Below, piece by piece: positions 1 through 15,111 of a stretch of 64,000 bases of DNA; position 1 is the stretch's first letter, and every line of letters begins with the position of its first letter. The stretch lies in the IMG/VR virus record IMGVR_UViG_3300028833_000068, positions 1 to 64,000 of that record; one strand, written 5' to 3'. The notes under the pieces were generated by a model, which saw only the letters and a program-made list of their open reading frames with translations, was not told the DNA's origin and did no database searches. This DNA is from a virus. Its lineage: Duplodnaviria > Caudoviricetes. Both the position numbers and the translations under genes were made by a program.

Positions 1-201
1 TGGTCACTCCCCAGAGGAGTCCTTACACGCATCCATTTTTTTTATTTTGTTTAAACAGTACCTTACATTTAATTAAACTACCTTGACAGCAGTCATTGCA
101 AGTCCCATACCAAGGTAAAATACATTTTGTTCCTTTCCACCAAGTACAAATATTGCAAAGTTTTACGAGAAGTTGATTTATTTTTTTGTGGCTTTTTTGT
201 T

Positions 202-429
202 TCATAACTCTGTCTCCAATATATATTTTAATGGTTTTACGGCTTCGTTTGGGATTTGTTTGTTAAGATGTTTAATACGTTTGTCAATATATTTTCCATT
301 AGTAGAATCCTCTATAAATTGTTTCCCACCATTATACCATAATTTATAAATTTTATATTTCATTGTATTATTTATTCTAGTTTTATTAATCCCATTTCTA
401 ACATTTTGTGATGATTTGGGCATAACCAA
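202..429 (-). CDS. hypothetical protein (true start probably the internal Met near 363)
   Basis: ORF track; co-oriented with neighbours; overlaps the end of the HNH gene. Confidence 0.4.
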   Translation of the reverse strand: MVMPKSSQNVRNGINKTRINNTMKYKIYKLWYNGGKQFIEDSTNGKYIDKRIKHLNKQIPNEAVKPLKYILETEL

Positions 430-1106
430 ACTAAATTATTTTCATTATTTATCTCTCCAATTGTTGCATTACTATCGAACTCAAGAATACCTTTTAAATG
501 ATGTACTTCTAATATATCATCGAACTCATGATTATGGCAATATGCGCACACCCTTTCTCTTTTACTCTCTTCTATGGTTTTTCTAGCGTCTCTTCTTATG
601 TCACCACATTTGGTTGTAAGATATTTATGCCCATCAATATATGACCCAAGTGTTCTTTCTTTGATATTATTGCGTTTCTTTTTATCACTACATGTTTTAC
701 AGAGTTTAGAACCTTTGCGTTTTAACCCACCACATACAGGACATACCTCATAACCTTTTTTCTTTTTCTCTCCTAACCAAATGACATTACTAGCTTTACG
801 TTCTCTATGCCTATTATTATACTTCGCAGCACAAGAGTTATTGCAGAAGAAATGTTTGGTTTCACTTTTGTTATACTCACCCTTAAGTATTTTAAACTCT
901 TTACCGCATTCCTCACATTTAACAGTTATATATGAGTTTTCTTTATACCATTCTTTCTGACATTCTTGACAACAGAATTTAGGTAGTATATAACTATTTT
1001 TACTAAGTTCTCGCTTAGTCTTTGTGAACTTTTCCCCACAATGAGCACAGATAAATTCAAATTCATCTGTTGCTTTAGCTTTTTTAATTTCTTCGATATT
1101 ATACAT
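372..1106 (-). CDS. HNH homing endonuclease with N-terminal zinc-ribbon repeats
   Basis: Multiple CxxC pairs; C-terminal CAYC...LEVHHLK...NLVWLCPNHH HNH motif. Confidence 0.85.
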   Translation of the reverse strand: MYNIEEIKKAKATDEFEFICAHCGEKFTKTKRELSKNSYILPKFCCQECQKEWYKENSYITVKCEECGKEFKILKGEYNKSETKHFFCNNSCAAKYNNRHRERKASNVIWLGEKKKKGYEVCPVCGGLKRKGSKLCKTCSDKKKRNNIKERTLGSYIDGHKYLTTKCGDIRRDARKTIEESKRERVCAYCHNHEFDDILEVHHLKGILEFDSNATIGEINNENNLVWLCPNHHKMLEMGLIKLE

Positions 1107-1191
1107 AATTTATTATATTTACATATAAATATCTTCGAAAACCAAAAACTACGCTAAATTCATAGACTTTTTTCAAAAAACTTACATTTCG

Positions 1192-1268
1192 CAGCCCCTA
1201 TCGGATTCGAACCGACCTGTTTGAACACTGTGACAGAGTGACGGACACACCTAGCATCCCCAGAGGCT
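1192..1268 (-). tRNA. tRNA-Asp(GTC)
   Basis: Acceptor AGCCTCT/AGGGGCT, G73, loop CT-GTC-AC, T arm GTCGG TTCGAAT CCGAT. Confidence 0.85.
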
Positions 1269-1283
1269 ATTATTTTTTTTTTG

Positions 1284-1366
1284 AGACGAGGGTGAGATTT
1301 GAACTCACGTGCTTTTCAGCCAAAGGTTTTGCAGACCTAGGTAATTGACCACTCTACCACCTCGTC
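1284..1366 (-). tRNA. tRNA-Cys(GCA) with long variable arm
   Basis: GACGAGG/CCTCGTC, U73, loop CT-GCA-AA, variable hairpin GCT-GAAA-AGC. Confidence 0.9.
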
Positions 1367-1417
1367 ATCTCGTTATTAAAAAATCAAGAGTTGAACCAAC
1401 TTTTTTGAAATTTCAAG

Positions 1418-1490
1418 TGCGACAAGGCGACTCGAACGCTCCTCCTTCAGTTTTTCAGACTGACTTGCAGACCCCTTACACTATTGCCGC
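1418..1490 (-). tRNA. tRNA-Phe(GAA)
   Basis: GCGGCAA/TTGTCGC, TCAGT CT-GAA-AA ACTGA, TTCGAGT T loop. Confidence 0.85.
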
Positions 1491-1507
1491 ATTTTTATTC
1501 CCACATT

Positions 1508-1810
1508 TTATAACTTATCCAAATCATTAACAGTAGCTAACCATTCTTCATTTACATCATCCCAAAATTTACTTCCTTGCTTTGTTTTTCCCCAATTAAA
1601 TGCATGGACAATCCATTCTTTTGGTCTAAGCTCAGCTAACAAATATTTCAATGATAGTATTCCAAATTCCTCTTTAAATTGGTTATTTTTAGATTCTACA
1701 TTATCAATAAATGTTTTGTAAACTTTATATTCGATAAGAAATCTTTGAAAATGCCATTTATATCTTTTTATATCCATATACCATTTTATATTTTGTTGCA
1801 AATATACCAA
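1508..1810 (-). CDS. hypothetical protein
   Basis: ORF track; the annotated start overlaps a promoter motif, so the real start is probably the second Met. Confidence 0.65.
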   Translation of the reverse strand: MVYLQQNIKWYMDIKRYKWHFQRFLIEYKVYKTFIDNVESKNNQFKEEFGILSLKYLLAELRPKEWIVHAFNWGKTKQGSKFWDDVNEEWLATVNDLDKL

Positions 1811-1857
1811 ATTTATTTTAAATCTCCAAATTTATTTAGTTAATTAATCTTAAGCAC

Positions 1858-1902
1858 ATAAAAAAAGCTGCTAAAGACTTTTTTGGAGTTCTTCAACAGC
1901 TT
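1858..1902 (-). terminator. intrinsic terminator, part of a putative attenuator
   Basis: AAGCTGTTGAAGA...TCTTTAGCAGCTT hairpin followed by a U-run. Confidence 0.75.
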
Positions 1903-1950
1903 GGGAAATATATAGTGAAGTAAGTGCCTTCATTTTTTCACATTTTTATA

Positions 1951-2082
1951 CTACGTTTCTATATAGCCCTTAAGCTGCCCTCCAACTTTTGAGTTAGAAT
2001 TAAATACAACGGTATCACTCCATTTACAATCAGTAAATGAACTAGATGTTGTCTTGGCAATATTTTTAATCGTTGTATTCAT
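1951..2082 (-). CDS. putative 43-aa leader peptide (MNTTIKNIAKTTSSSFTDCKWSDTVVFNSNSKVGGQLKGYIET)
   Basis: Hand-translated ATG..TAG ORF whose 3' end is complementary to the downstream terminator's 5' strand. Confidence 0.6.
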   Translation of the reverse strand: MNTTIKNIAKTTSSSFTDCKWSDTVVFNSNSKVGGQLKGYIET

Positions 2083-2195
2083 AATTTAATAGTATTTAAA
2101 ATGTTTGTTTTTTACTTATAATTATATTACTAATCTCAAAAAGTTTTATTTTTTCGATATTTTTTTAAATTTTTTTTATTTTTTCTTGTTTACAA

Positions 2196-2229
2196 TGCAA
2201 AGATATATAAAATTTTCGAGAATTCCAAA
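2196..2229 (-). promoter_or_regulatory. Bacteroidota sigma-A type promoter (TTTG...TAnnTTTG)
   Basis: Minus strand TTTGGAA-N-TATATCTTTGCA; the same motif recurs near 1797, 3565, 7434, 11532, 15154, 15979, 20447, 22021, 23854, 29906, 33383, 36885 and on + near 40457-40490. Confidence 0.8.
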
Positions 2230-2250
2230 TTTTTAAGCAACTTTTTTTCA

Positions 2251-2607
2251 TTAAGCACTTAAAATTACTTCCCAGTCCTCATCAACTTCATTAACTTCTT
2301 CTACTTCCTCTTCGCAATCTGAATCGGTAATTGTTGCTAGATTATTGATAACCTTCTTTGTTCCAACCGCAACAGCATACAATCCACCAACTCCTCTTAA
2401 CTTAATTCGTCTATCACAAGTATATCCTTCAACAACTCCACTTGCCCAACACTTCTCACCAATTTGATTGAGATAACAAAAAGTAATGCCATCACCATCA
2501 ATTGCTTCATATTCCTTGGTTACAGTATTATATAATCTCTTATCCTTAATAACCAAACATCTCTCAACTATTTGGATTACCTTGGAGTTGTCAATTTCAA
2601 TAAACAT
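2251..2607 (-). CDS. hypothetical protein, acidic C-terminus
   Basis: ORF track. Confidence 0.7.
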   Translation of the reverse strand: MFIEIDNSKVIQIVERCLVIKDKRLYNTVTKEYEAIDGDGITFCYLNQIGEKCWASGVVEGYTCDRRIKLRGVGGLYAVAVGTKKVINNLATITDSDCEEEVEEVNEVDEDWEVILSA

Positions 2608-2631
2608 AACAATAATAGTTTTAAAAGTTTG

Positions 2632-2705
2632 TACACCCAGAGGGACTCAAACCCCCAATCTGATGGTTCGTGGCCACCTATTCTATTCAGTTGAACTATG
2701 GGTGC
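2632..2705 (-). tRNA. tRNA-Arg(ACG)
   Basis: GCACCCA/TGGGTGT, GGTGG CC-ACG-AA CCATC; C33; A19/U56. Confidence 0.9.
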
Positions 2706-2711
2706 AAGAAA

Positions 2712-2850
2712 GGAAGCGTAGGTTTATTATGACTATTTTCCTCTACATGGAGAACTGTTACTATTCTTCGCAGTAAAACGCATGTGGTACTTAGCCCTTT
2801 GCCTAGTTTCAGAGTAACATAAATTATTAATCCAACTGCTGTACGCTTCC
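2712..2850 (-). ncRNA. ACAGCA-stem element 1 (structured, non-tRNA cargo)
   Basis: GGAAGCGT-ACAGCAG...ACGCTTCC terminal stem. Confidence 0.7.
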
Positions 2851-2895
2851 GCTAAGAGTTCTATTTGAATTATGAAAAACACACTCAAATTAAAA

Positions 2896-3045
2896 AGGAA
2901 CGACCAATTTTATGTCTTGGCTCGACATTCGCTCCTAAGAGCATAAGCAAGTGCCTCGCAAATATGATTTAACGCTTCTCTTGCTTTCATTTACTGAATC
3001 TAATACAAATGTTTTAAAATAAAGTAAATGTTGCTGTACGTTCCT
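2896..3045 (-). ncRNA. ACAGCA-stem element 2
   Basis: AGGAACG-T-ACAGCAA...CGTTCCT terminal stem; internal CATTTACT/AGTAAATG stem. Confidence 0.7.
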
Positions 3046-3175
3046 ACTGATGCAGCTAGGCGCAACTGGGCTTCCTAGATACACCTTGTGATACCGCTTT
3101 AAACCTCGTGAGCCATTGTTAATGCGCACACGCTCGACTTCCACGAGTATTTACGTCTTTGGTTTATTGCGGTTG

Positions 3176-3249
3176 TGATGAGGGAGGGACTCGAACCCTC
3201 AACCTACAGCTTAGAAGGCTGTTGCTCTGTCCAATTGAGCTACCCCACC
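3176..3249 (-). tRNA. tRNA-Arg(TCT)
   Basis: Canonical cloverleaf, ACAGC CT-TCT-AA GCTGT. Confidence 0.95.
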
Positions 3250-3250
3250 A

Positions 3251-3406
3251 TTATTTCAACGTTTTATCTTTCTTCTCGTCATAGTCATCCCATAGGAATG
3301 GTTCTTTTTCATCAACAATTGGTGCGTGTTTGATTTCATATAGGAATATAGAAATTCCTAATCCCATCATAATGCCAAGTACAATTGCAATAATTTTAAG
3401 AATCAT
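3251..3406 (-). CDS. small single-pass membrane protein (51 aa)
   Basis: Hand-translated MILKIIAIVLGIMMGLGISIFLYEIKHAP...; below the ORF-track cutoff. Confidence 0.6.
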   Translation of the reverse strand: MILKIIAIVLGIMMGLGISIFLYEIKHAPIVDEKEPFLWDDYDEKKDKTLK

Positions 3407-3409
3407 AAC

Positions 3410-3562
3410 TTATTGTTTTTTAAATTCCTTTTCAATTTCTCCATCAAATACCTTTCTATTGTATTCATGAGACTTTTTTTCTTTGGAATTAATCTTACCA
3501 ATCAGTACAATAATGACACCTAGTAAGAAACATATTATCATAAACAATATTAACCTTCCCAT
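3410..3562 (-). CDS. small single-pass membrane protein (50 aa)
   Basis: Hand-translated MGRLILFMIICFLLGVIIVLIGKINSK...; directly downstream of a promoter motif. Confidence 0.55.
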   Translation of the reverse strand: MGRLILFMIICFLLGVIIVLIGKINSKEKKSHEYNRKVFDGEIEKEFKKQ

Positions 3563-3630
3563 AATGCAAATATACCAAAAAATTTTTTAATAACCAAATT
3601 TATTAAGACTTTTTAAGAAAATAATTTGTG

Positions 3631-3718
3631 TGCCCTAGGTAGGACTCAAACCTACACGCTACTATTATTTCGCACTAGATTCTAATTCTAGGATGTCTAT
3701 CAATTCCACCACTAGGGC
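3631..3718 (-). tRNA. tRNA-Leu(TAG)
   Basis: GCCCTAG/CTAGGGC, A73, CTAGA AT-TAG-AA TCTAG, long variable region. Confidence 0.9.
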
Positions 3719-3724
3719 ATTTTC

Positions 3725-3875
3725 GGAAACATTTAATATTCTAATTGCCGTGTTTAGCCACTCCACCACCACATGTTTAATGATTAAGTTGTCATGTGGG
3801 TAGGATTCGAACCTACGAAACCGTTACGGTTAGCAATTCCCTTTTGAACATTTTTATCAATTGCTGTACGTTTCC
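3725..3875 (-). ncRNA. ACAGCA-stem element 3: circularly permuted type-II tRNA-like (YrlA-like)
   Basis: GGAAACGT-ACAGCAA...ATGTTTCC; order is V arm, T arm (GTAGG TTCGAAT CCTAC), CCACATG-linker-CATGTGG, D arm. Confidence 0.85.
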
Positions 3876-3878
3876 TTA

Positions 3879-3960
3879 TGGTAGTGAAGGGGGGACTTGA
3901 ACCCCCATACACCAATTACGGCTTTAACGACTGTATATAAGACAGGACCGATACATCACT
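3879..3960 (-). tRNA. non-canonical tRNA-Ile(TAT)-like, D arm displaced, CCA encoded
   Basis: AGTGATG/CTTCACT-A-CCA, CTGT CT-TAT-AT ACAG, GGGGG TTCAAGT CCCCC; no normal D hairpin. Confidence 0.75.
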
Positions 3961-4168
3961 AGTTTAAAATATTGTTATTCCAATATGGATAATTCTTCTT
4001 TTCAGATTCTGGTGTATCAATAAGTTCATACCTTGCTCCGCAATAAGGACAATGTGCGTTTGTAACCATTGCATCATCGTCTTCTGAAAGTTCTTCCCCA
4101 TTAATTTCGCTTAACATGAAATTTGATTCAAGAATCAAATCATGTTTACATCGCATACATTTTTCCAT
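3959..4168 (-). CDS. small zinc-ribbon protein
   Basis: CxxC...CPYCG. Confidence 0.75.
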   Translation of the reverse strand: MEKCMRCKHDLILESNFMLSEINGEELSEDDDAMVTNAHCPYCGARYELIDTPESEKKNYPYWNNNILN

Positions 4169-4189
4169 ATTGTTAAGTTTTAATTTTAA

Positions 4190-4211
4190 GGGGAACTACG
4201 AAGAGTTCCCC
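4190..4211 (-). terminator. hairpin / putative terminator
   Basis: GGGGAACT-N6-AGTTCCCC after the membrane-protein gene. Confidence 0.55.
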
Positions 4212-4220
4212 ATTTTATTT

Positions 4221-4550
4221 TTATTCGGTTTTCTTTGGTAGGAATATTGGCAAGTTATCGATGAAATTCTTAATGAAAGGAATATCATAGATACCATTAC
4301 TTGCAAGTCCCACTACTGCACAAAGGCAAATCAATGCTAGCCATACTGGTTCTCCAATACATGTAATCAAGCCAAGGAAATAACCTCCTACGGTTAGTGC
4401 AGAACCTGTAATCCATGCGACAAGCTGTGGCCAAAATCCTTCTGTAATGTTAAATTTTCCGTTAATTGCTCCTGCAATCGTAACAGTCAATGAAGCAAGA
4501 ATTGGTGCAAAATACCAAAATGCCTCAGTAAATAATGCTGTTGTAATCAT
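4221..4550 (-). CDS. small multi-pass membrane protein, holin-like
   Basis: About 3 hydrophobic segments, GLASNGIYD motif, basic C-terminus. Confidence 0.6.
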   Translation of the reverse strand: MITTALFTEAFWYFAPILASLTVTIAGAINGKFNITEGFWPQLVAWITGSALTVGGYFLGLITCIGEPVWLALICLCAVVGLASNGIYDIPFIKNFIDNLPIFLPKKTE

Positions 4551-4591
4551 AAATTAGGTTTTTAGTTTTAGTTATTTTAAAAAGTATTTTG

Positions 4592-4663
4592 AGACGATGA
4601 CCAGAATCGAACTGGCGTCCTTTGCATGGCAAGCAAACGCACTAGCCACTGTGCTACACCGTC
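4592..4663 (-). tRNA. tRNA-Gly(GCC)
   Basis: GACGGTG/CATCGTC, U73, TTTGC TT-GCC-AT GCAAA. Confidence 0.9.
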
Positions 4664-4724
4664 AATTAATATCTCTTCCTATTATCCTTTAATGTGTGTC
4701 GAAACACTAATTATTTTCTAAAAG

Positions 4725-4797
4725 AGCGTCATAACAGATTCGAACTGTCTCCTAAACCTTGGAGGGGTCTCATGCTACCATTGAACACCAATGACGC
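4725..4797 (-). tRNA. tRNA-Gly(TCC)
   Basis: GCGTCAT/ATGACGC, U73, AGACC CC-TCC-AA GGTTT; C33. Confidence 0.9.
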
Positions 4798-5006
4798 AAG
4801 TAACTAACTTCGTGATAAATGCCTTAAATAGCGTTTATCTGGTTTGGTATTAGTCTTGAGCTGTTTACCTATTCGCAGCAACCGTTTGTCTAGTCATCTA
4901 GAAGACAAAGGAGAATGTAGACGATTTTGATGACTGACAAACTTGCGGTTTTTTCGCATTAACACCGCCAAAGCTTAAGTCTTATTCTCCTAAATGTTGT
5001 TAATGT

Positions 5007-6023
5007 TTACTGTGCCATTGTAACCTTTGCAGCACGACCTTGTACCTTGTCTACGCCCTTACCTACTGCACTAGCAACTCTAACACCACGATTAACGCTA
5101 AGATATTCAGCAACGGTCTTTGCACGGTCTTCAGAAAGCTTCTGATTAAACTCAGCAGTACCATCCTCAGATGCAGTACCTACAACATCAACGATTGCGT
5201 CATTACCAATGCTATTAAGAATAGTCTTTGCCTCATTACTGAGTTCTGAACTAGCGGTTGCAAATGTAACAATCCATTCTGTGTTATTTACGAATACAGT
5301 AGCGGTATTAGGCTGCGTAATGTGTCTCTCAACAATAACCTCAGTTGGCTTCTTTGCAAGTTCCTCATTCAAACGATTAATCTCGTTCATCATTGCACCA
5401 ACATCATAAGTCTTGAAATGACGTGTACCATTAGAGGTCTTGAAGTGATACTTATAAGTTACCATCAAGCTAAGATTTGCATTGTTGTGGTTAAACTGTA
5501 AGGCACTGCCGTTCTTAAGTCCCCAATAGATTGCTGGAGTCAATACAACTGAATGCTGCTTAGTCTTACCAAAATTAACTGCAAAATCGAAACCAGTCTT
5601 TGCAACAAGGTCATTTCCGCTATGGTCAAAACCATGACGTGCTCCAATACCTAGTACAGCAGATGTCTCAAATGCACGAGGTGTACCCTTATAGCCCAAG
5701 AAGATGTTAGGAAGGTTAAAAGCACCATTCAAGCCAAGACTAATAGACCTAAAGGCAGTCTTTACATCACCAAAATGGTTGTCACCAAGGCTTGTCAAAA
5801 CCTCAAGCTGTGCATCTAACCAAGGAGTGATACCCTTTGTACCAACAAGACCGAAAGTTGTGTTTACTGGGAACACGCTATTCATGTCAAGAGGTGAAGT
5901 TACACCTACGGTTGCTCCAAGGCTAATGTTGTCGAGAACCTTGCTGTTCTCAGTTGCAATCTGTGCATTCGCACCCATCACTACGGCACTAAACAGTGCC
6001 AACATTAAAATCAATTTCTTCAT
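5007..6023 (-). CDS. OmpA-family outer membrane protein
   Basis: Signal peptide, alternating beta-strand region, C-terminal OmpA-like motif GTASEDG...NQKLSEDRAKTVAEYL. Confidence 0.85.
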   Translation of the reverse strand: MKKLILMLALFSAVVMGANAQIATENSKVLDNISLGATVGVTSPLDMNSVFPVNTTFGLVGTKGITPWLDAQLEVLTSLGDNHFGDVKTAFRSISLGLNGAFNLPNIFLGYKGTPRAFETSAVLGIGARHGFDHSGNDLVAKTGFDFAVNFGKTKQHSVVLTPAIYWGLKNGSALQFNHNNANLSLMVTYKYHFKTSNGTRHFKTYDVGAMMNEINRLNEELAKKPTEVIVERHITQPNTATVFVNNTEWIVTFATASSELSNEAKTILNSIGNDAIVDVVGTASEDGTAEFNQKLSEDRAKTVAEYLSVNRGVRVASAVGKGVDKVQGRAAKVTMAQ

Positions 6024-6063
6024 AACAATTTTTTTTTAATTTAATTTTGTTTTTAATTTGTTA

Positions 6064-6372
6064 TTAGAAGGGGAGGTCATCAAGCTCCTTTGCTATTCTG
6101 AGTCTCCACCTATATGTATAATATTTTACGTTAAATTTATAACTAATCTTAAATGACGGTATGTTAACATTAATACCCTTACGTTCAAATGTCTTGACTA
6201 TTAAATCAAAAGCATCTGAACAGTATGGATATGTTGTTTCCACATTAAGCTCTAGTGGTTCTTCATCATCCATCACATTCTTGTTTATACAATCTTGAAT
6301 GTTCCTTATGAAAAATAAACAATACCTAGGAAAATCAATATCCTTTTTTGTTATTTTCTTATATTCAGCCAT
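6064..6372 (-). CDS. hypothetical protein
   Basis: ORF track; DDLPF C-terminus. Confidence 0.7.
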   Translation of the reverse strand: MAEYKKITKKDIDFPRYCLFFIRNIQDCINKNVMDDEEPLELNVETTYPYCSDAFDLIVKTFERKGINVNIPSFKISYKFNVKYYTYRWRLRIAKELDDLPF

Positions 6373-6388
6373 AAATTCTATAAAAAAC

Positions 6389-6491
6389 GGATGCTCTTTT
6401 TGTTTGCTAAACCACTAAGCGACTTTGCCAAACGGCAAGGGTTGGAATCGAACCAACGTAGAAACAGAAGTTTCCATTGCTGTAAGCATCC
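6389..6491 (-). ncRNA. ACAGCA-stem element 4: YrlA-like T-acceptor-D module
   Basis: GGATGCTT-ACAGCAA...GAGCATCC; GTTGG TTCGATT CCAAC, CCTTGCC-GTTT-GGCAAAG, GCTTAGTGGTTTAGC. Confidence 0.85.
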
Positions 6492-6496
6492 TTGTG

Positions 6497-6644
6497 TGGA
6501 CTGTATTGGATTCGAACCAATGTTGCCGATTAGCCGCTTCACATTACATATGAAACATCATTATGTTAATCACCATAATGTGCAAAGGGGTCTCTCCTTT
6601 GTTCCTCCAAGTGCTTCGCTGCATTCCAACTTACTGAACAGTCC
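6497..6644 (-). ncRNA. 148-nt tRNA-like RNA (acceptor and T arm, large internal insert)
   Basis: GGACTGT/ACAGTCC-A, ATTGG TTCGAAT CCAAT; no canonical anticodon arm. Confidence 0.7.
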
Positions 6645-6751
6645 ATTTAATTTATTTTATAAAGAGTTATAGAAACTTATAAAAGCATCTATTTTCTCTT
6701 TCATCATTTCCTTCCCTTTTTCATTGTTTATTTGATTCCATGATAAATTGT

Positions 6752-7123
6752 TTAATACTGTTGTTTGCTTGGAATAACACCCCTTACACCACCACGAGGA
6801 TTATCACAGTCTCCATCGTATCTTGGGATAATGTGGATATGACAGTGTTTAACTGTTTGCCCAGCACTATCCCCACAGTTAGTACCGATGTTATAACCAG
6901 TAGGATGAAACTTATCATCCAGTATCTTTTTCACATCATTCAGTCTAAAACTCAATGATTCCCTCAGCCTATCTGGTAGGTCAAAGAAGGTTTCGTGATG
7001 CTCCTTCGGAATGAGTAGCGTATGTCCAGGGGTTACAGGATAACCATCGTAAACGGCAACCCACTCTGTAGTCTCAAACAGAATTCTACTCTTATCAATA
7101 TTACAAAAAATACAATTATCCAT
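6752..7123 (-). CDS. HIT family nucleotide hydrolase
   Basis: CIFC N-terminus, PGHTLLIPK, GQTVKHCHIHIIPR histidine triad. Confidence 0.95.
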   Translation of the reverse strand: MDNCIFCNIDKSRILFETTEWVAVYDGYPVTPGHTLLIPKEHHETFFDLPDRLRESLSFRLNDVKKILDDKFHPTGYNIGTNCGDSAGQTVKHCHIHIIPRYDGDCDNPRGGVRGVIPSKQQY

Positions 7124-7221
7124 ACTCTAATTTACCGTTTGGGTATTTGTTGAAAAACTCTGTTATAATGTCTCTTATCTCGTCACACATACCTTCTCTT
7201 CCTTCGTATGTGATTTTCTTG

Positions 7222-7297
7222 TGGCACAGACCCGACTCGAACGGGCACAATCCACTTCCCAAAAGTGGGCGGGTACCAATTACCGTTATACTGCGCC
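7222..7297 (-). tRNA. tRNA-Pro(TGG)
   Basis: GGCGCAG/CTGTGCC, CCACT TT-TGG-GA AGTGG, GCCCG TTCGAGT CGGGT. Confidence 0.85.
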
Positions 7298-7305
7298 AAT
7301 TATTC

Positions 7306-7424
7306 GGAAACATCTATCCACTTAGCTATCACGCCAATCTTGGTAGCGTGAGTTGGACTTGAACCAACGACCTTAAAATCCCGAATTTTATACTATATCA
7401 TTTTTTAACTTGCTGTGTGTTTCC
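7306..7424 (-). ncRNA. ACAGCA-stem element 5: circularly permuted tRNA-Pro(CGG)-like
   Basis: GGAAACAC-ACAGCAA...ATGTTTCC; TAAAA TT-CGG-GA TTTTA, AGGTC, T arm, TCACGCT-A-CCA, linker, GGCGTGA, D arm. Confidence 0.85.
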
Positions 7425-7478
7425 TTGTACTTTTGCAAAGATATATAAAATATTTTAAATTTCCAAATTTTTGACGTT

Positions 7479-8423
7479 TTATTTTTCGTTTATGTCTATT
7501 TTTGCAATAAGTGGATAATGGTCTGATGATGTTATATTAGTATCAAAAGAACATTCTTTCAATGACAATTGATATTTTGACTTATCATTATTAACATAGA
7601 ACAACTTATCACAATCTGAATGATTTGTTGGGATTGCTTCTTGAATATTTAATCCATTTATATTATTAATGGCATTAATCAAATTATCTTGAATGTTTGT
7701 TTTATCCCATTCATACTTATCGTAAGTATTTGTGTCACCAAATATGATAATTGGGTTATATGATTTGGCTTTATCTATATATTCCACCAATTGTTTTAAC
7801 TGTGATTCTCTTGCTTCCAAATCTCCAGATATATTTGGACATTTTTCTGCATCATAAAAATCAGCATCCATGTGTAACATATACACATCCAATGGAATTT
7901 CGTTATCTATAACGGTAGTATAATATCTAAATCCTTTATGAGTTAATGCATCATTAGCATGCGTAAAGTACCCATAGCACTTTTTCCATCGTTTAATGTC
8001 TTCTGTTTTTTGAATGACATCAATTCTATTTTTCTTAGCAATGATATTAATACCATCACATTTAAATCTAGGCAATGGAAAATAAGTTAGCCATTCTGTA
8101 TTTGAAAATAACTTTGAAAGGTCAAATCCTCCTGTATATTTGCCACAAGAATAATTATCTTTCAATGATGACATTAATTCATCATGATAATTAAAGTCTT
8201 CTTGAACTCCTATAATATCTGCCTCAGAGGATGATAGATATTTGCTTATGTTTTCAATATCTTCTTTCTTATTTCCATTGTCATTAATTGAAATAATTGT
8301 TGTTCCTTTAAATAACTTATATATCCAAGCAATTGGTTTCAATATCCAAGGAAGGTCATTTAAATCCAATTCACTTGGCAAACCATCAATATTATAGGTT
8401 ATTAGCTTAATTGTTTTATCCAT
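7479..8423 (-). CDS. endonuclease/exonuclease/phosphatase (EEP) family protein
   Basis: ITYNIDG, DIIGVQED, GDTN, SDHYP motifs. Confidence 0.9.
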   Translation of the reverse strand: MDKTIKLITYNIDGLPSELDLNDLPWILKPIAWIYKLFKGTTIISINDNGNKKEDIENISKYLSSSEADIIGVQEDFNYHDELMSSLKDNYSCGKYTGGFDLSKLFSNTEWLTYFPLPRFKCDGINIIAKKNRIDVIQKTEDIKRWKKCYGYFTHANDALTHKGFRYYTTVIDNEIPLDVYMLHMDADFYDAEKCPNISGDLEARESQLKQLVEYIDKAKSYNPIIIFGDTNTYDKYEWDKTNIQDNLINAINNINGLNIQEAIPTNHSDCDKLFYVNNDKSKYQLSLKECSFDTNITSSDHYPLIAKIDINEK

Positions 8424-8463
8424 TTAATCTATTGTTCCTTCTTCTATTAGTTTTACCTTGTAT

Positions 8464-8501
8464 TTGACATACTCTCACGCCTAAAGGCATTGGGCTTTCT
8501 T
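8464..8501. mobile_element. possible orphan IS200/IS605-family end hairpin
   Basis: CTCTCACGCCTAAAGGCATTGGGCTTTCT resembles IS605/IS1341-type subterminal palindromes; no transposase nearby. Confidence 0.4.
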
Positions 8502-8551
8502 GGGAAATTTTTCGTAACTTTTTCATAACAAATTACAGTATTAATCATTTG

Positions 8552-8635
8552 GGTGATATGTTGGATTCGAACCAACGTGAGCTTTCGCTACCAGGACCAC
8601 AATCTGGCGTCATCGGCCTCTAGACGAATATCACC
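8552..8635 (-). tRNA. tRNA-His(GTG) with G-1 and long variable arm
   Basis: G-GTGATAT/ATATCAC-C73, CCAGA TT-GTG-GT CCTGG, AGC-GAAA-GCT variable hairpin. Confidence 0.9.
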
Positions 8636-8832
8636 ATATTAAAAACGAACAGTAGTATATGCCATTACGAGCAGATACCATTACTAGTTACTATCAATTG
8701 CCTCAGCATATCGTCATCATTTTTACAGTACTACTATTATATGACTATTGTTTGCCTACTTCCTATCAAGTCTGTTCTTCTGTGTAGACTTCCCTACATT
8801 GCACGAAGCGGTGACTACAATCCCCCAATGCG

Positions 8833-8917
8833 TGGACTGTATGGGACTCGAACCCATCGTTCTGTATGGTCTTCGTGCGCCTAACCGACCAGCGTTTCCC
8901 TACCACATTGACAGCCC
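8833..8917 (-). ncRNA. tRNA-like RNA with G3:U70 (Ala-type) acceptor, no canonical D or anticodon arm
   Basis: GGGCTGT/ACAGTCC-A, ATGGG TTCGAGT CCCAT, TGGTC/GACCA stem with a 15-nt loop. Confidence 0.7.
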
Positions 8918-8929
8918 ATGTTAAAAAAC

Positions 8930-9045
8930 GGAATCATTAAAACTAAGGTGGTGCAGGATTCGAACCTACGTTCTCTTGGTAAAATCCAAGGCTTTAGTCC
9001 ACTAAGCTAACCGTCTGAAGTTTATATCAATTGCTGTTAGATTCC
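8930..9045 (-). ncRNA. ACAGCA-stem element 6: whole tRNA body (UUU-like loop) inside the scaffold
   Basis: GGAATCTA-ACAGCAA...ATGATTCC; GCTT AGTGGACTA AAGC, CTTGG ATTTTA CCAAG, GTAGG TTCGAAT CCTGC. Confidence 0.8.
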
Positions 9046-9051
9046 TTTTTG

Positions 9052-9134
9052 TCAGGTGGGTAGGATTCAAACCTACGAACTTCTGCTATATCAACACGGC
9101 TATATTTGCAGAACAATGATGCCGTTTCCACCTG
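9052..9134 (-). ncRNA. non-canonical tRNA-like RNA
   Basis: CAGGTGG/CCACCTG-A, GTAGG TTTGAAT CCTAC; TTCTGC/GCAGAA stem; ACGGC/GCCGT possible pseudoknot. Confidence 0.7.
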
Positions 9135-9139
9135 TTTTG

Positions 9140-9212
9140 TCTAGATGAAAGGACTCGAACCTTCGACCACAGCATCCCAAATGCCGCATTCTACCTACTG
9201 AACTACACCTAG
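9140..9212 (-). tRNA. tRNA-Pro(TGG)
   Basis: CTAGGTG/CATCTAG, CGGCA TT-TGG-GA TGCTG. Confidence 0.92.
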
Positions 9213-9325
9213 ATTTGTGCCACCATAGATAATACTCTAGAATTCTTGCATTATATCCTCTATAGTCTTATGCTGCTCTTAGAGAGGTTGCCTAAAGACT
9301 CATATTACTATGAATGAGCACTTTG

Positions 9326-9419
9326 TGGGAAGGGAGGGATTCGAACCCCCCTACTGCGAGACCAATACGCCCATTTGTTAATGCAGGACTGATTTACAGT
9401 CAGTTGACGTTACCTTCCC
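9326..9419 (-). tRNA. non-canonical tRNA-Tyr(GTA), D arm displaced
   Basis: GGGAAGG/CCTTCCC-A, ACTGA CT-GTA-AA TCAGT, GGGGG TTCGAAT CCCTC; only 8 nt between acceptor and anticodon arm. Confidence 0.8.
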
Positions 9420-9421
9420 TT

Positions 9422-9485
9422 TAAGCATAGGTTTCCTAACCACAATCCTTTCGAATTGACCACAGTGATGAGCTGTGTATGCTTA
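9422..9485 (-). ncRNA. small RNA carrying a CAT anticodon arm
   Basis: TAAGCATA/TATGCTTA closing stem, CACAG CT-CAT-CA CTGTG, GAAA tetraloop hairpin. Confidence 0.55.
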
Positions 9486-9486
9486 T

Positions 9487-9681
9487 TTAATCAAATGCAA
9501 TATAATGAAAATACAATGCCATTTTTTTAATTAATATATCCTCATCTATATCTTCTTTCTGAGGATACTTTCCTAGATATTGTTTTACCACTCTTTCATT
9601 TGCTTGTATGGTTGAGAATCCGAATTTATTCTCTTCCACCATTTTATTATATTTTTCTGTTAATCCTTTTACGTTAATCAT
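9487..9681 (-). CDS. hypothetical protein
   Basis: ORF track. Confidence 0.6.
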   Translation of the reverse strand: MINVKGLTEKYNKMVEENKFGFSTIQANERVVKQYLGKYPQKEDIDEDILIKKMALYFHYIAFD

Positions 9682-9684
9682 TTC

Positions 9685-9727
9685 ACTTAAACTTCCCTAA
9701 TCTTATTCCCTCTACGAGGTAATCATA
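9685..9727. repeat. 43-bp direct repeat, copy 1 (copy 2 at 10107-10149)
   Basis: acttaaactt(c/t)cctaatcttattccctctacgaggtaatcata, one mismatch. Confidence 0.9.
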
Positions 9728-9731
9728 TACC

Positions 9732-10088
9732 TCACTTATATTTAAATTCAATTATAAACACATTTTTATCTCTTCTATCGAATCTTGTTATGTTAAGGTT
9801 CTCAATACGTCCTTTCTCTTCATCGAGTCTGAATCCATCCTCAAATGAGCGATACACTTCTAGCTCTTTTGGATTCTGCGTGACAATACAAATCACCTTT
9901 TGCAATGAGTTATCTTCCGTATGACAGAACATTGCCCTCATACCCCTAAAGTTATTGTTTATAGCAATACCTCCGCTTGTAACGAGTCCTAATGCAAACT
10001 CTTCCCAAATAGGAATATCACACTCTAAATAAATACCCATACCGCAAGGGTCTTTGGCATTCAGATGTTCTTTCGTAATTACTTCCAT
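9732..10088 (-). CDS. hypothetical protein flanked by direct repeats
   Basis: ORF track. Confidence 0.7.
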   Translation of the reverse strand: MEVITKEHLNAKDPCGMGIYLECDIPIWEEFALGLVTSGGIAINNNFRGMRAMFCHTEDNSLQKVICIVTQNPKELEVYRSFEDGFRLDEEKGRIENLNITRFDRRDKNVFIIEFKYK

Positions 10089-10104
10089 ATAGCTTTATTT
10101 TAAA

Positions 10105-10542
10105 TTACTTAAACTTTCCTAATCTTATTCCCTCTACGAGGTAATCATACGTTATTTTCCAATCTGTTTCAGCATCAAAGCCAAACTTATCATCTATTCC
10201 CACATTGAAATAAGTTTTTTCTGTAAAGTCTGAGAGGTCAGTATTTCCAGTTTCTGAATTGATATTGACCATATCAAACTTTATGCCATTATTCTTGAAA
10301 AACTCAAGATATTCCTTGATGGCATTCTTATGAGTTGATGACCACAATATGAGTGATATTTGTTGTGCGTGTGACATGATGTCAAGTGTTTCCTTGGCAT
10401 ATGGAAACCATTCATGAGTTTCCTCATTATGGTAGCATGCCTTAAGGATTGTATCGTGAATATCCACGAGCACATATATCTTTTCCCAATTGCGTTCTTT
10501 CATTCTTTTGAAAGCTGCATCAAAACTCTTTTCTATATTCAT
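10105..10542 (-). CDS. HAD-superfamily phosphatase-like protein
   Basis: VDIHDTI motif I, LILWSS, GIDDK. Confidence 0.75.
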   Translation of the reverse strand: MNIEKSFDAAFKRMKERNWEKIYVLVDIHDTILKACYHNEETHEWFPYAKETLDIMSHAQQISLILWSSTHKNAIKEYLEFFKNNGIKFDMVNINSETGNTDLSDFTEKTYFNVGIDDKFGFDAETDWKITYDYLVEGIRLGKFK

Positions 10543-10745
10543 AACTATAATTGTATGTTATTAAAATAAAGGAGAGTAGTATCTAATTAAGTAAATCTCT
10601 AGAGTCGTTAAAGACATAATACAATCTATCATTTACCTTCGACCAATCGGCATCAAGATATACATCTTAATAAGACTTGCTCTCCAACAAGGCTTACCTA
10701 GTTTGAGTGTTGCTTGGCAACTCTCAGGGACTAATAAGCTCCATG

Positions 10746-10817
10746 TTGAGGCTGAATGAATCGAACATTCATAATGAGGACCAGAATCTCATGTAATAAC
10801 CATTATACGAAGCCTCA
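10746..10817 (-). tRNA. tRNA-Gln(CTG)
   Basis: TGAGGCT/AGCCTCA, TGAGA TT-CTG-GT CCTCA. Confidence 0.9.
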
Positions 10818-10824
10818 AGTTTAA

Positions 10825-10886
10825 GGGAACATTTTTAACTTATCCAAATTTGCAGTTCGATGTTAAATACATTGCTGTATGTTCCC
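10825..10886 (-). ncRNA. ACAGCA-stem element 7: minimal scaffold presenting a Cys(GCA) anticodon arm
   Basis: GGGAACAT-ACAGCAA...ATGTTCCC; TTAAC/GTTAA; TCGAA CT-GCA-AA TTTGG. Confidence 0.8.
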
Positions 10887-10992
10887 ACTATTTGATAGCA
10901 GGGTTGCTAGATTTCACTCAAATGACTTTACACATTAAACGTATCTGCATGCACTGTCCGTTCTTGAGACTGTCCTAGTACTTTCTGCTTTG

Positions 10993-11083
10993 TATTGGGT
11001 AGGGGATTCGAACCCCTGAAGAGTCTCGTAAAACTCTTACAAGATTGAAAGTCTTGCTACTTAAACCACTCGTACAACCCAAC
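10993..11083 (-). tRNA. tRNA with Glu(TTC) anticodon on a type-II (long variable arm) body
   Basis: GTTGGGT/ACCCAAT-A, CAAGA CT-TTC-AA TCTTG, AAGAGTTT-TACG-AGACTCTT variable stem. Confidence 0.85.
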
Positions 11084-11236
11084 ATTTGTAAAAAGGTCAG
11101 AGCACCATAGATAGTCTCGTTATTACGATTCGGATTTACACTATCCTCTGATAGAGGCACTATTCGTTTCCAAGTGAGTCATGTTGTACACCATGCGTCT
11201 CGAAACCTAACTATCATCCTCGAATGATGACCTTTG

Positions 11237-11310
11237 TAGCGTTAGCGAGACTCAAACTCGCAATCTCCACCTTGAGGGGGTGGCGGCTTAATCAGTTCGC
11301 CTATAACGCC
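11237..11310 (-). tRNA. tRNA-Glu(CTC)
   Basis: GGCGTTA/TAACGCT, CCACC CC-CTC-AA GGTGG; C33; A19/U56. Confidence 0.9.
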
Positions 11311-11315
11311 ATATT

Positions 11316-11504
11316 TTATATTGCACTTGGCATTTTGCGAATATCCATCGCTTCTGCCTTTCTCATTTCTTTGCAATACTTCTCTATTTCTATTCCTTCA
11401 TCATACCCAAGTCTATATGCCTTAGATATTGCATCATGAACTTTCGAAAAGTTCTTCCATTTTTCAAGAAGTTCTTGGTACTCTTTATAATTCTTACTTT
11501 CCAT
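11316..11504 (-). CDS. hypothetical protein
   Basis: ORF track; directly downstream of a promoter motif. Confidence 0.65.
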   Translation of the reverse strand: MESKNYKEYQELLEKWKNFSKVHDAISKAYRLGYDEGIEIEKYCKEMRKAEAMDIRKMPSAI

Positions 11505-11856
11505 GTTTTATTGCATTTATATGTTTCACGATGCAAAGATATGAAAAATTTTTGAAATAACCAAATTTTTAGCCAACTTTTAACAAAATTAAACAGTTTA
11601 AGGGTGAACATTCTGTAGATTGTTCACCCAATACATTATATATAATACCATGAAAAAGTCTGATATACTATAATAATATGATGATGTAAATCTACACTTA
11701 ACCTATGTACATACCTCTATGGCTTGGATATTCATACCCAAGCTCACGTGGCTGTTCTATATGTAGGTTAAATGTAATCATAATATTATTAATGCTATTT
11801 TATTATAAATATAATGTATTATCAAAAAAAAATCAATAAAACGATGAAAAAAAGTT

Positions 11857-12306
11857 TTAACTTCTTGCAGCAGCTTCTTTTTCTTCTCTTTCTTTTTCAA
11901 GAATTTCTCTCCATTTATTGGTAAATTCTTGAAAGATGTCAGTACCCTTTGCGATACCATAAACCTCCTTTGTCCATCCAAAGATTGATGTTCCAGTACT
12001 ACCAATCTTAAACCAAAGTTCTCCAGTATGGCTTGCGTCTGAGATTTCCCACACTTGATGCACCATTGGCCAAGATTCTCCATTTTCGCCACGCAACACA
12101 CAGAAAACTGCATCACCGCGTTTAACATCAATTGGAACACAAGGTCGAACTAGACAATATTCACGATTGCGGATTAAAGGAGATAGACTATCCCCGAATT
12201 CCCAATGATAGAATGATTCACCGTTTTTTAAGGCTTGTTCCATTTCATATGGGTCTTGAATGACCCTCAGCCCATCAATTGTTTCAGGTTCGTTTACTAT
12301 TCTCAT
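11857..12306 (-). CDS. S24/S26 peptidase-like protein
   Basis: FGDSLSPLI...VKRGDAVF...MVHQV resembles the signal-peptidase/LexA-type fold. Confidence 0.6.
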   Translation of the reverse strand: MRIVNEPETIDGLRVIQDPYEMEQALKNGESFYHWEFGDSLSPLIRNREYCLVRPCVPIDVKRGDAVFCVLRGENGESWPMVHQVWEISDASHTGELWFKIGSTGTSIFGWTKEVYGIAKGTDIFQEFTNKWREILEKEREEKEAAARS

Positions 12307-13821: not shown

Positions 13822-15111
13822 TTACTCAATAAGCTTTTTGCCTTGAAGTTCACTAGCGATTACTCGCTGTGTTGATTCTGCAACACCAATAGCCTTCATA
13901 CGCATTTCCTTCTCAAGCTTTGCGATTTCAGCCTCGGCTGCACGTCTCTTCTCAGCGCCTTCCTTCTGTGCCTTCTGAACACCTTCTACGGTCTCTACAA
14001 GCTTCTGTGTAGATAGACGAAGGGTCTCAACATCAATCACCATGCGCTGACTCTGTTTTGCAACCTCAATGGCTTGAGTCTTCATCATTTCAGCATTCTT
14101 ACGCATCAACTCATTGGTTGTGTCAGTAACCTTAGTACCAACCTCGATGGCTTGCTTTTGGTCGAACAATGCAACAGCAAGTGAAAGCTGATTCTTCCAA
14201 AGAGGAATTGTCATAGCAATCTGAGACTCTGTGTTATTAGCATGCAAGATGTTCGTGCGCTGAATAATACGAATCTGAGTAAGTGACTGCTTAAATGCAT
14301 AACGAAGTGCAACAAGGTCACTCAAACGTTTATCAAGTGAATTCTTATATTCCTCAATGTCACTAATCTGATAATCCTCATATTCTCCAGCTCGAACTTT
14401 CATATCCTCAATGAGTTTCTCAAGTTCTTCTGACTTCATCTTACCAGCAACGATAAGGTCTTCAAGTTGGTCAACATAGTCGCAGTTGTTTTCAAACTGC
14501 TTTTGCAATAGGTTATTATCACGAATTGCAATCTGACGAGTTGCCTCAAGTTTCTTAACAATACCATCAATATTCTTCTCAATGGTATTATACTTTGCCT
14601 TAATCTGCTCAACAGAAACAACAAGTTTCTTAAGTCCAGGAATTCTCCTCAAGAACTTCTTGATTCCACTAGGTGCTTCAAGGTCATCAATATTAACCTC
14701 GTGCAACTCTCCCAATAGATTAGAAATGAGTTCTGCTGACTCAATACCAGCCTTAGAATCAAATGACTGCTTAAGGAAGTCACTTGAATAACTATCCATT
14801 GCTTTCTGAAGGTCAGAGCCATAACTTGAGATACTAGTTATGTCATTCTCATTTAAGACTGCTGCAATCTCCTTATAATAAGCCTTACGTGCTGGAGTGA
14901 GATTCGATGTATTAATCTCTCCAGTGTCCTCTACACGCTTCATTACAGCACCACTAGTGAGTTCAGCCTCTGCTTCGGCTGAAATCTCTTCTACAGCACG
15001 TCTTGTGCGAGTAGGTGACTTACGCTTTGTGGCGTTTGCAGCCCTCTTTCTAGGCTTCTTGACTTCCGTTACTTCAGCTTCTACAACTGTTGCTTTTGTT
15101 TTTTCTGCCAT
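13822..15111 (-). CDS. telA: toxic anion resistance protein (TelA/KlaA family)
   Basis: Coiled-coil protein with YGSDLQ, QIRIIQRTN, TIPLWKNQL, TTNELMRKNAEMMK signatures. Confidence 0.85.
   Translation of the reverse strand: MAEKTKATVVEAEVTEVKKPRKRAANATKRKSPTRTRRAVEEISAEAEAELTSGAVMKRVEDTGEINTSNLTPARKAYYKEIAAVLNENDITSISSYGSDLQKAMDSYSSDFLKQSFDSKAGIESAELISNLLGELHEVNIDDLEAPSGIKKFLRRIPGLKKLVVSVEQIKAKYNTIEKNIDGIVKKLEATRQIAIRDNNLLQKQFENNCDYVDQLEDLIVAGKMKSEELEKLIEDMKVRAGEYEDYQISDIEEYKNSLDKRLSDLVALRYAFKQSLTQIRIIQRTNILHANNTESQIAMTIPLWKNQLSLAVALFDQKQAIEVGTKVTDTTNELMRKNAEMMKTQAIEVAKQSQRMVIDVETLRLSTQKLVETVEGVQKAQKEGAEKRRAAEAEIAKLEKEMRMKAIGVAESTQRVIASELQGKKLIE

Follow-up and report, generated by a model that had tools for sequence, protein, structure and literature searches.

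Between the two halves of a phage tRNA island lies a short stretch of minus-strand DNA in which a promoter, a small ORF, an intrinsic terminator and a second promoter follow one another. What does such a unit do in front of tRNA genes? Our best reading is a ribosome-mediated leader-peptide attenuator that reports the supply of the tRNAs encoded downstream. We give this reading a probability of about 0.6; no experimental data support it. The window analyzed here comprises positions 1 to 64,000 of an IMG/VR record of 171 kb, whose completeness is ~53% (CheckV). The DnaK of the record has ~50% identity to the DnaK of Lak Prevotella megaphages, and two IMG/VR contigs encode a DnaK that is 80-83% identical to that of the record.

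Elements of the unit and their conservation

The minus strand carries the genes and tRNAs of this region, and ARAGORN called 14 tRNA genes within 1191-11310. A promoter, a 43-aa ORF, a terminator and a second promoter had been claimed here in the first-pass annotation, and all four held at their minus-strand coordinates. Promoter P1 (2198-2229, minus strand) is of the Bacteroidetes type, with TTTG at -33 (2229-2226) and a -7 box TATCTTTG (2205-2198). The transcription start was inferred near 2190, a few nucleotides downstream of P1. It is followed by an A-rich 5' UTR of ~105 nt (2083-2190, minus strand) that is conserved among relatives in an alignment of upstream regions; possibly it serves ribosome loading, which is an inference. 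A conserved block, TATATAATTATAG, is also seen in the 5' UTR (2097-2183, minus strand, and relatives), ~30 nt before the ATG.

The leader ORF (1951-2082, minus strand) has 43 codons and ends with the stop TAG at 1953-1951. We divide it into a sensor part, codons 2-31, and a part that forms the antiterminator strand, codons 32-43. Downstream of it lies an invariant 31-nt motif, AGGCACTTACTTCACTATATATTTCCCAAGC (1899-1929, minus strand), which runs into the intrinsic terminator (1860-1902, minus strand). The terminator consists of a 5' arm (1902-1890), a loop (1889-1878), a 3' arm (1877-1865) and a T-run to 1860. Its stem has 13-15 bp with seven T's and a folding energy of -16.2 kcal/mol. A simple terminator scan missed it because the loop rule of that scan was 3-8 nt. 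Promoter P2 (1799-1830, minus strand) is of the same type as P1, with TTTG at 1830-1827 and TATATTTG at 1806-1799. Both promoters fit the Bacteroidetes-type consensus (AAAAATTTGGAA..TATATCTTTGCA), and the same 45-nt promoter consensus is present at at least 8 other sites of the 171-kb record.

Relatives of the module were recovered from IMG/VR contigs and rumen-type metagenomes with a conserved 14-mer and then with longer patterns. The module was found in 60 loci with 47 distinct cores. The sources are Lak-like megaphages of ~300-410 kb and rumen metagenomes; four of the IMG/VR contigs are complete genomes of 295-413 kb, and each complete genome has one copy of the module. GenBank phages showed no similarity to window positions 1500-2650 at the DNA level. 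All 46 distinct relatives whose upstream sequence is long enough retain the ORF, which ends 4-35 nt before the motif; among them are six lineages whose peptides are barely alignable. A terminator of -15 to -19 kcal/mol with a T-run is present in all relatives. Two features expected of an attenuator, a short selected ORF upstream of a terminator and an intrinsic terminator between leader and regulated genes, are therefore met.

The element always splits the tRNA island at the same point. tRNA-Arg(TCT) and Arg(ACG) stand before it; P2 follows, then tRNA-Phe, either directly or behind an optional ORF, and then Asp. In the complete genomes, Glu, Gln, Tyr, Pro, His, Gly, (Met), Leu and Arg tRNAs are upstream of the element, and Phe, (Cys), Asp, (Thr), Val, Asn, Ala, Ser, Lys and Thr tRNAs come after P2, with no further promoter for 5-6 kb past it. 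The downstream unit of the complete relatives comprises 14-16 tRNAs; Ile and Trp tRNA genes lie farther downstream. The window contains only the first tRNA genes of this array (1191-1491, minus strand), which is cut off by the contig end. As had been claimed, these are tRNA-Phe(GAA) at 1491-1417, tRNA-Cys(GCA) at 1366-1283 and tRNA-Asp(GTC) at 1268-1191. The optional ORF of the window has 91 aa (1508-1783, minus strand), lies between P2 and tRNA-Phe and is of unknown function; many relatives have tRNA-Phe straight after P2, and no relatives were recovered with this ORF as query. Pfam and PHROGs searches with the leader, the 91-aa ORF and a 118-aa ORF gave nothing useful. An HNH endonuclease gene (PHROG 1271; 372-1106, minus strand) lies just past tRNA-Asp, at the array edge.

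The first-pass annotation had raised the second promoter as a caveat, since it lies downstream of the terminator. The caveat held. Nearly all relatives have P2 at a fixed spacing, 60-70 nt past the terminator; its -7 box ends 125-140 nt downstream of the first base of the search pattern, which lies 3 nt inside the 31-nt motif. Because P2 is conserved at this place, the array does not depend on read-through, and the switch would add to basal transcription. It is conceivable that read-through even interferes with P2. A main route by read-through into the regulated genes is typical, though not strictly defining, for the attenuator family; it is not met here, as P2 intervenes. The exceptions are L152 and L176, in which a tRNA-Ser gene starts 17 nt past the terminator and precedes the next promoter. 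At the other end of the unit, a dedicated P1 is present in about half of the relatives. In the other half an upstream ORF ends at the place of P1 and has its promoter at about -660 to -720; there the leader is the last cistron of the upstream operon.

Compensatory pairing of the ORF end with the terminator

The first-pass annotation had proposed that the ORF pairs alternatively, through its 3' end, with the terminator region, and this pairing held in every segment. The antiterminator 5' strand lies inside the ORF (1959-1985, minus strand). From it, TTGGAG (1985-1980) pairs with CTCCAA (1888-1883), GGCAGCTT (1979-1972) with AAGCTGTT (1902-1895), GGG (1969-1967) with CCC (1905-1903) and TATATAG (1965-1959) with CTATATA (1915-1909). 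The 3' half of the 31-nt motif makes up the upper 3' strand of the antiterminator and the start of the terminator arm. When the window sequence was folded with 75 nt of upstream context, the antiterminator fold was the MFE structure at -38.2 kcal/mol; with less upstream context, the terminator fold won at -35.9 kcal/mol. Since the preferred fold flips with context length, this RNA is close to bistable. Shuffled versions of the 341-nt transcript fold less well than the real one (z = -4.2). Between the ORF end and the terminator arm plus loop, the duplex has -17.3 kcal/mol versus -10.9 kcal/mol for codon shuffles (p = 0.02).

Comparison of the relatives shows that both structures are maintained by compensatory changes. 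The RNAalifold consensus structure is the terminator. One of its pairs in the main family is A-U in 19 sequences and U-A in 15, and in the diverged lineages GCTG/CAGC is replaced by GCCG/CGGC or GTCG/CGAC, which are compensatory. When the 3' arm was blocked, the 5' arm paired with the ORF 3' end in every lineage examined. The 7-bp core RRCAGCT/AGCTGTT is paired in 35/35 main-family sequences, and its changes in this family are purine-to-purine only and keep A-U or G-U. Over all 18 proposed pairs, 82.5% of cells pair, compared with 28-46% in slid registers. The codon before Gln specifies G, E, Q, R or K, yet it is always xRR, and the sole Gln-to-Arg variant (CGG) retains its pair as G-U. The purine-only changes, the xRR pattern and the kept G-U pairs argue for an RNA rather than a protein constraint. 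Since all main-family sequences share an invariant 3' side, this family shows no double changes in the antiterminator.

Covariation in relatives was checked in the diverged lineages, as the first-pass annotation had suggested, and it held: the ORF end tracks the changes in the terminator 5' arm. AACGGT, TCAATGGCTT, TCAACAGTTTG or ACGGCT stands in these lineages opposite their own arm variants. When compared with real windows from the same loci, the match of strand and arm had an empirical p of 0.006-0.12 per lineage, and a Fisher combination over six lineages (our own arithmetic) gave about 2e-5. Flanks extend the helix in a lineage-specific way (TTGGAG/CTCCAA, GGTTC/GAACT, GGGGT/ACTCC). A mutually exclusive antiterminator and terminator with covariation, a third feature expected of an attenuator, is thus met. 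The further claim, that these exclusive structures belong with a translated leader, is supported by the comparative data, in the absence of expression data.

The antiterminator strand lies 0-47 nt upstream of the stop codon, or over it. In main-family leaders, 17-18 nt separate the end of the core 5' strand from the stop, which places this end at the trailing edge of a ribosome in termination. While it sits at the stop, such a ribosome would mask mainly the upper stem, and no obvious region-1 partner (anti-antiterminator) was found to hold the strand once the ribosome is released. In most relatives the terminator is the more stable structure at equilibrium, by 3-15 kcal/mol; the attenuator model therefore needs kinetic control.

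The attenuator reading leaves the 5' half of the 31-nt motif (GGCACTTACTTCA) unaccounted for. Three other roles were considered for the motif and rejected. A repeated promoter or site was excluded, as the motif occurs in a single copy per genome. A second small ORF over the motif was excluded by the alignment, since its ATG is not shared by the relatives and an in-frame stop interrupts it in many of them. In a T-box-like pairing of the motif with tRNA-Phe or another tRNA, no tRNA stood out.

The codon alphabet of the leader

The string F-T-D-C in the leader had been put forward as the signal that ties the leader to the next tRNAs. This part failed: the string is not conserved, and most relatives have FADS or FTSS instead. 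The link between leader codons and downstream tRNAs held, but it runs through the whole N-terminal alphabet. Residues 2-31 of the window leader belong to the downstream tRNA set in 29/30 cases, and none of the 30 is E, G, H, L, P, Q, R or Y. When 45,970 windows of 30 aa from the proteins of the phage itself were inspected, not one lacked these amino acids.

The same restriction was found across the relatives. In the N-part of 34 unique ORFs there are 56 variant amino-acid states, and none of these falls in the upstream-tRNA set, versus 21.3 expected from single-nucleotide neighbours (P = 1.7e-12). In the C-part, which forms the antiterminator strand, 20/43 states fall in that set. Single columns of the N-part hold residues of widely different chemistry (F/S/A/N/T/I), and the conservative exchanges D to E, K to R and I to L are absent. 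Base composition is not the explanation, because the AT-rich codons TTA, TAT and GAA are also excluded. Every one of the 30 N-part codons of the complete genome G004 can be read by a downstream tRNA, and for 27 codons this tRNA belongs to the unit directly after P2. The N-terminal two thirds of the peptide precede the antiterminator strand. That the alphabet of the leader N-part is confined to the amino acids of the downstream tRNAs is shown by these data and is new, and it meets a fourth expectation for an attenuator, a match between the codons of the leader and what is regulated. The alphabet hypothesis was sharpened once the data had been seen. Against a classical attenuator stands the lack of tandem runs of one regulatory codon in all leaders except that of G001.

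The Cys codon follows gene order. A Cys codon in the N-part co-occurs with a downstream tRNA-Cys gene with 0 discordant among 34 rows. Codon and tRNA gene each changed 3 times on the tree, and Cys occupies different positions. Sister lineages have Ser at the equivalent codon, and their tRNA-Cys is missing downstream or, in L062, lies upstream. A sign test of the Cys association was set aside as underpowered, because only 2-3 independent pairs are available. G001 has a homologous 3' region and 5' UTR with a different small ORF. This leader, which directly precedes tRNA-Cys and tRNA-Phe, carries four Cys in five codons and also three Phe; four Cys among 30 residues would arise by chance with a probability of ~1.3e-3.

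His behaves in a similar way. It occurs in no main-family leader, where tRNA-His is upstream. The leaders of L152, L176 and L164 contain His three times each, and those of L167 and L175 once each. tRNA-His was found downstream in L152 and L164; none was detected in the 3.3 kb available for L176, and too little sequence is present at the L167 and L175 loci to decide. The match of leader residues and tRNA genes is imperfect at the level of lineages, as some relatives keep Phe/Val/Ala residues without those tRNAs in the unit.

The main-family peptide has 41-44 aa, with N8, I9, K21, W22, V27, Q38 and L39 invariant. Third codon positions are only ~1.5x as variable as first and second positions, which leaves room for some peptide function. 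A search for leader protein homologues found only 11 close peptides, and no protein family matched the leader (Pfam, PHROGs, homologue search). An overlapping ORF in an alternative frame (2060-1959) was rejected, as only some relatives keep the frame.

The leader stop was also considered. Recoding of TAG in the record gave no clear sign; the gain in open frames was smaller than in the TGA control. The complete relatives G003 (L185) and G004 (L186/L187) encode a tRNA with a CUA anticodon at ~+15.6 to +16.2 kb from the element. ARAGORN labels it 'Pyl', and we take it to be an amber suppressor. If the leader TAG were read through, the next in-frame stop would be TGA at 1932-1930, just before the motif.

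A 62-aa Glu/Lys-rich ORF (11316-11504, minus strand) fills the gap that runs from a consensus promoter (-7 box at 11541) to tRNA-Glu(CTC), and stops 6 nt short of that tRNA. It was considered as a counterpart of the leader that would serve the upstream half of the island, and rejected, as its mixed alphabet does not match the tRNA set and no terminator follows.

Proposed mechanism, rival explanations and wider setting

In the mechanism we propose, the attenuator would head the second half of the phage tRNA island. Transcripts would originate from P1, or from the promoter of the upstream ORF in many relatives, and would carry a well-translatable 43-codon leader whose first ~30 codons call only for amino acids of the downstream tRNAs. 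The last ~12 codons would form the 5' strand of a long hairpin that sequesters the terminator 5' arm and loop. With fast decoding, the ribosome would cover the antiterminator strand while RNA polymerase makes the terminator; the terminator would form and the transcript would end at 1860. When the sensor codons are decoded slowly, with their tRNAs scarce, uncharged or damaged, the antiterminator would form first, and it would likewise do so under a general translation block. Polymerase would then read through P2 into the tRNA array and top up basal P2 transcription. Since the sensed quantity would be the supply of the tRNAs encoded downstream, the loop is predicted to be a negative feedback. 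Coupling of transcription and translation, the direction and the size of the response and the effect of leader translation on read-through are all inferred.

A bolder reading is that megaphages autoregulate a tRNA array of 14-16 genes through a 'codon-sampler' leader, a homeostatic sensor of tRNA supply. We consider this version slightly more likely than not. The 31-nt motif may possibly add a second, trans-acting function.

Three rival explanations were weighed. The strongest of them, which we still consider unlikely, is that the terminated leader transcript is itself the product, a small dual-function RNA of the attenuator-derived or 3'-UTR type. The single-stranded CU-rich motif (GGCACTTACTTCA...TTTCCC) would be a seed or a protein-binding site beside the terminator hairpin, and the peptide may also act in trans; such a role is compatible with attenuation. 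In its favour, the motif is identical where the ORFs and terminator loops have diverged, which exceeds what attenuator pairing needs. The unit also has its own promoter and terminator, and there is a precedent in rnTrpL/peTrpL of Sinorhizobium (PMC6614838, PMC7298713). However, the conservation of the motif is partly ascertainment, because the motif served as search pattern. Its complement found no good target in the 171-kb record (best 12/15 matches), no phage tRNA was matched specifically, and the codon alphabet and the Cys/His covariation are left unexplained.

Slightly less likely still is that a normal gene for a small phage protein ends in a normal terminator, and that the next unit then begins with its own promoter. 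Complementarity and composition would in that case be by-products of a polar S/T/N/K-rich peptide and of drift. The invariant residues N8, I9, K21, W22 and V27 and the more variable third positions speak for it; terminator-promoter junctions are common in phage genomes, and P2 makes regulation of read-through dispensable. Against it, the N-part changes radically and yet never to E, L, G, R, Q, P, Y or H, the pairing of the arm is kept by compensatory changes across unrelated peptide sequences, and the protein matches no family. We find it just as unlikely that the switch merely insulates the array, with termination shielding P2 from occlusion by upstream transcription. Regulated read-through would then lower P2 output, or would only set the 3' end of the upstream operon. 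The fixed spacing of terminator and P2 in nearly all relatives and the position of the leader as last cistron in about half of them fit this idea. It leaves unexplained why the leader alphabet mirrors the downstream tRNAs, and it does not account for the tRNA gene that separates the terminator from the next promoter in L152 and L176.

The attenuator reading can be compared with known systems. Classical leader-peptide attenuators (trpL, hisL, pheL, leuL, thrL) control amino-acid operons. The phage element shares with them a short translated ORF, an intrinsic terminator, an exclusive antiterminator with its 5' strand at the ORF end and codons tied to the regulated function. Unlike them, it would regulate tRNA genes rather than biosynthetic enzymes, has no run of a single codon (one relative excepted) and no clear region-1, is followed by a second promoter and shows no sequence or Rfam similarity to them. 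With permissive filters, cmscan of 1858-2229 gave no Rfam match, including the Trp, His, Leu and Thr leaders and Bacteroid-trp. Multivalent attenuators are known from the ilvGMEDA leader (Ile/Leu/Val) and the thr leader (Thr/Ile), where, as proposed here, one leader reports several amino acids or tRNAs; among attenuators of the trpL type, the multivalent ones come closest to the proposed working of the phage element. In contrast to these, the phage leader samples ~10 amino acids, each at least 2 times, and excludes a defined 8. The bacterial pheST attenuator with its pheM leader controls a synthetase through a Phe-only leader. It resembles the phage element as leader-peptide control of a component of the translation apparatus that responds to the level of charged tRNA, whereas the phage element would govern tRNA genes.

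T-box riboswitches are functionally analogous in that a terminator/antiterminator decision reports tRNA status, but they work without an ORF, by direct binding of uncharged tRNA. Window positions 1-12000 gave no T-box match at E up to 1, and no specific duplex of motif and tRNA was found. In rnTrpL/peTrpL, the terminated RNA of an attenuator and its peptide act in trans (PMC6614838, PMC7298713). This is a possible model for the 31-nt motif; unlike there, no target is known for the phage motif, and the trans idea remains hypothetical. The Bacteroid-trp motif RF01692 is listed as cis-regulatory in Bacteroidetes (PMC2864571). It is a leader with Trp codons, and would show leader-type attenuation in the host phylum, though it has no similarity to the phage element and different regulated genes.

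Phage tRNA genes are usually discussed as codon compensation or as escape from host anticodon nucleases (PMC10264068). The control of their expression has been little studied, and our literature search found no publication describing such control of tRNA genes. If the attenuator reading is true, a virus has a direct, testable feedback sensor of tRNA supply, and leader-peptide attenuation extends to tRNA genes, to phages and to Bacteroidetes hosts. Such a sensor would be useful when host tRNAs are depleted or are cleaved by defence nucleases. The family supplies natural mutants: leaders with and without Cys, His moved across the element, P1 present or absent and a tRNA gene before the next promoter.

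Several other features were observed in the window. A phage-encoded tyrosyl-tRNA synthetase lies at 20509-21810 (minus strand; PHROG 9270, E = 1e-120), and a 429-aa protein of the PHROG 5890 'tellurite resistance' family at 13822-15111 (minus strand; E = 2e-58). Two Rfam tRNA-like matches (34.4 and 29.5 bits), which ARAGORN did not call, and a weak tmRNA-clan match were found at 9326-9419, 7344-7414 and 3879-3960 (minus strand); these look like atypical tRNA-like genes of the island. A weak Rfam match to YrlA (Y RNA-like) at 6381-6480 (minus strand) scored 31.7 bits with E = 0.0012, which is under the gathering score. The same island encodes a 559-aa protein (22136-23815, minus strand) that matches PHROG 850 'RNA-binding protein', and the two are possibly a phage Ro/Y-RNA-like pair.
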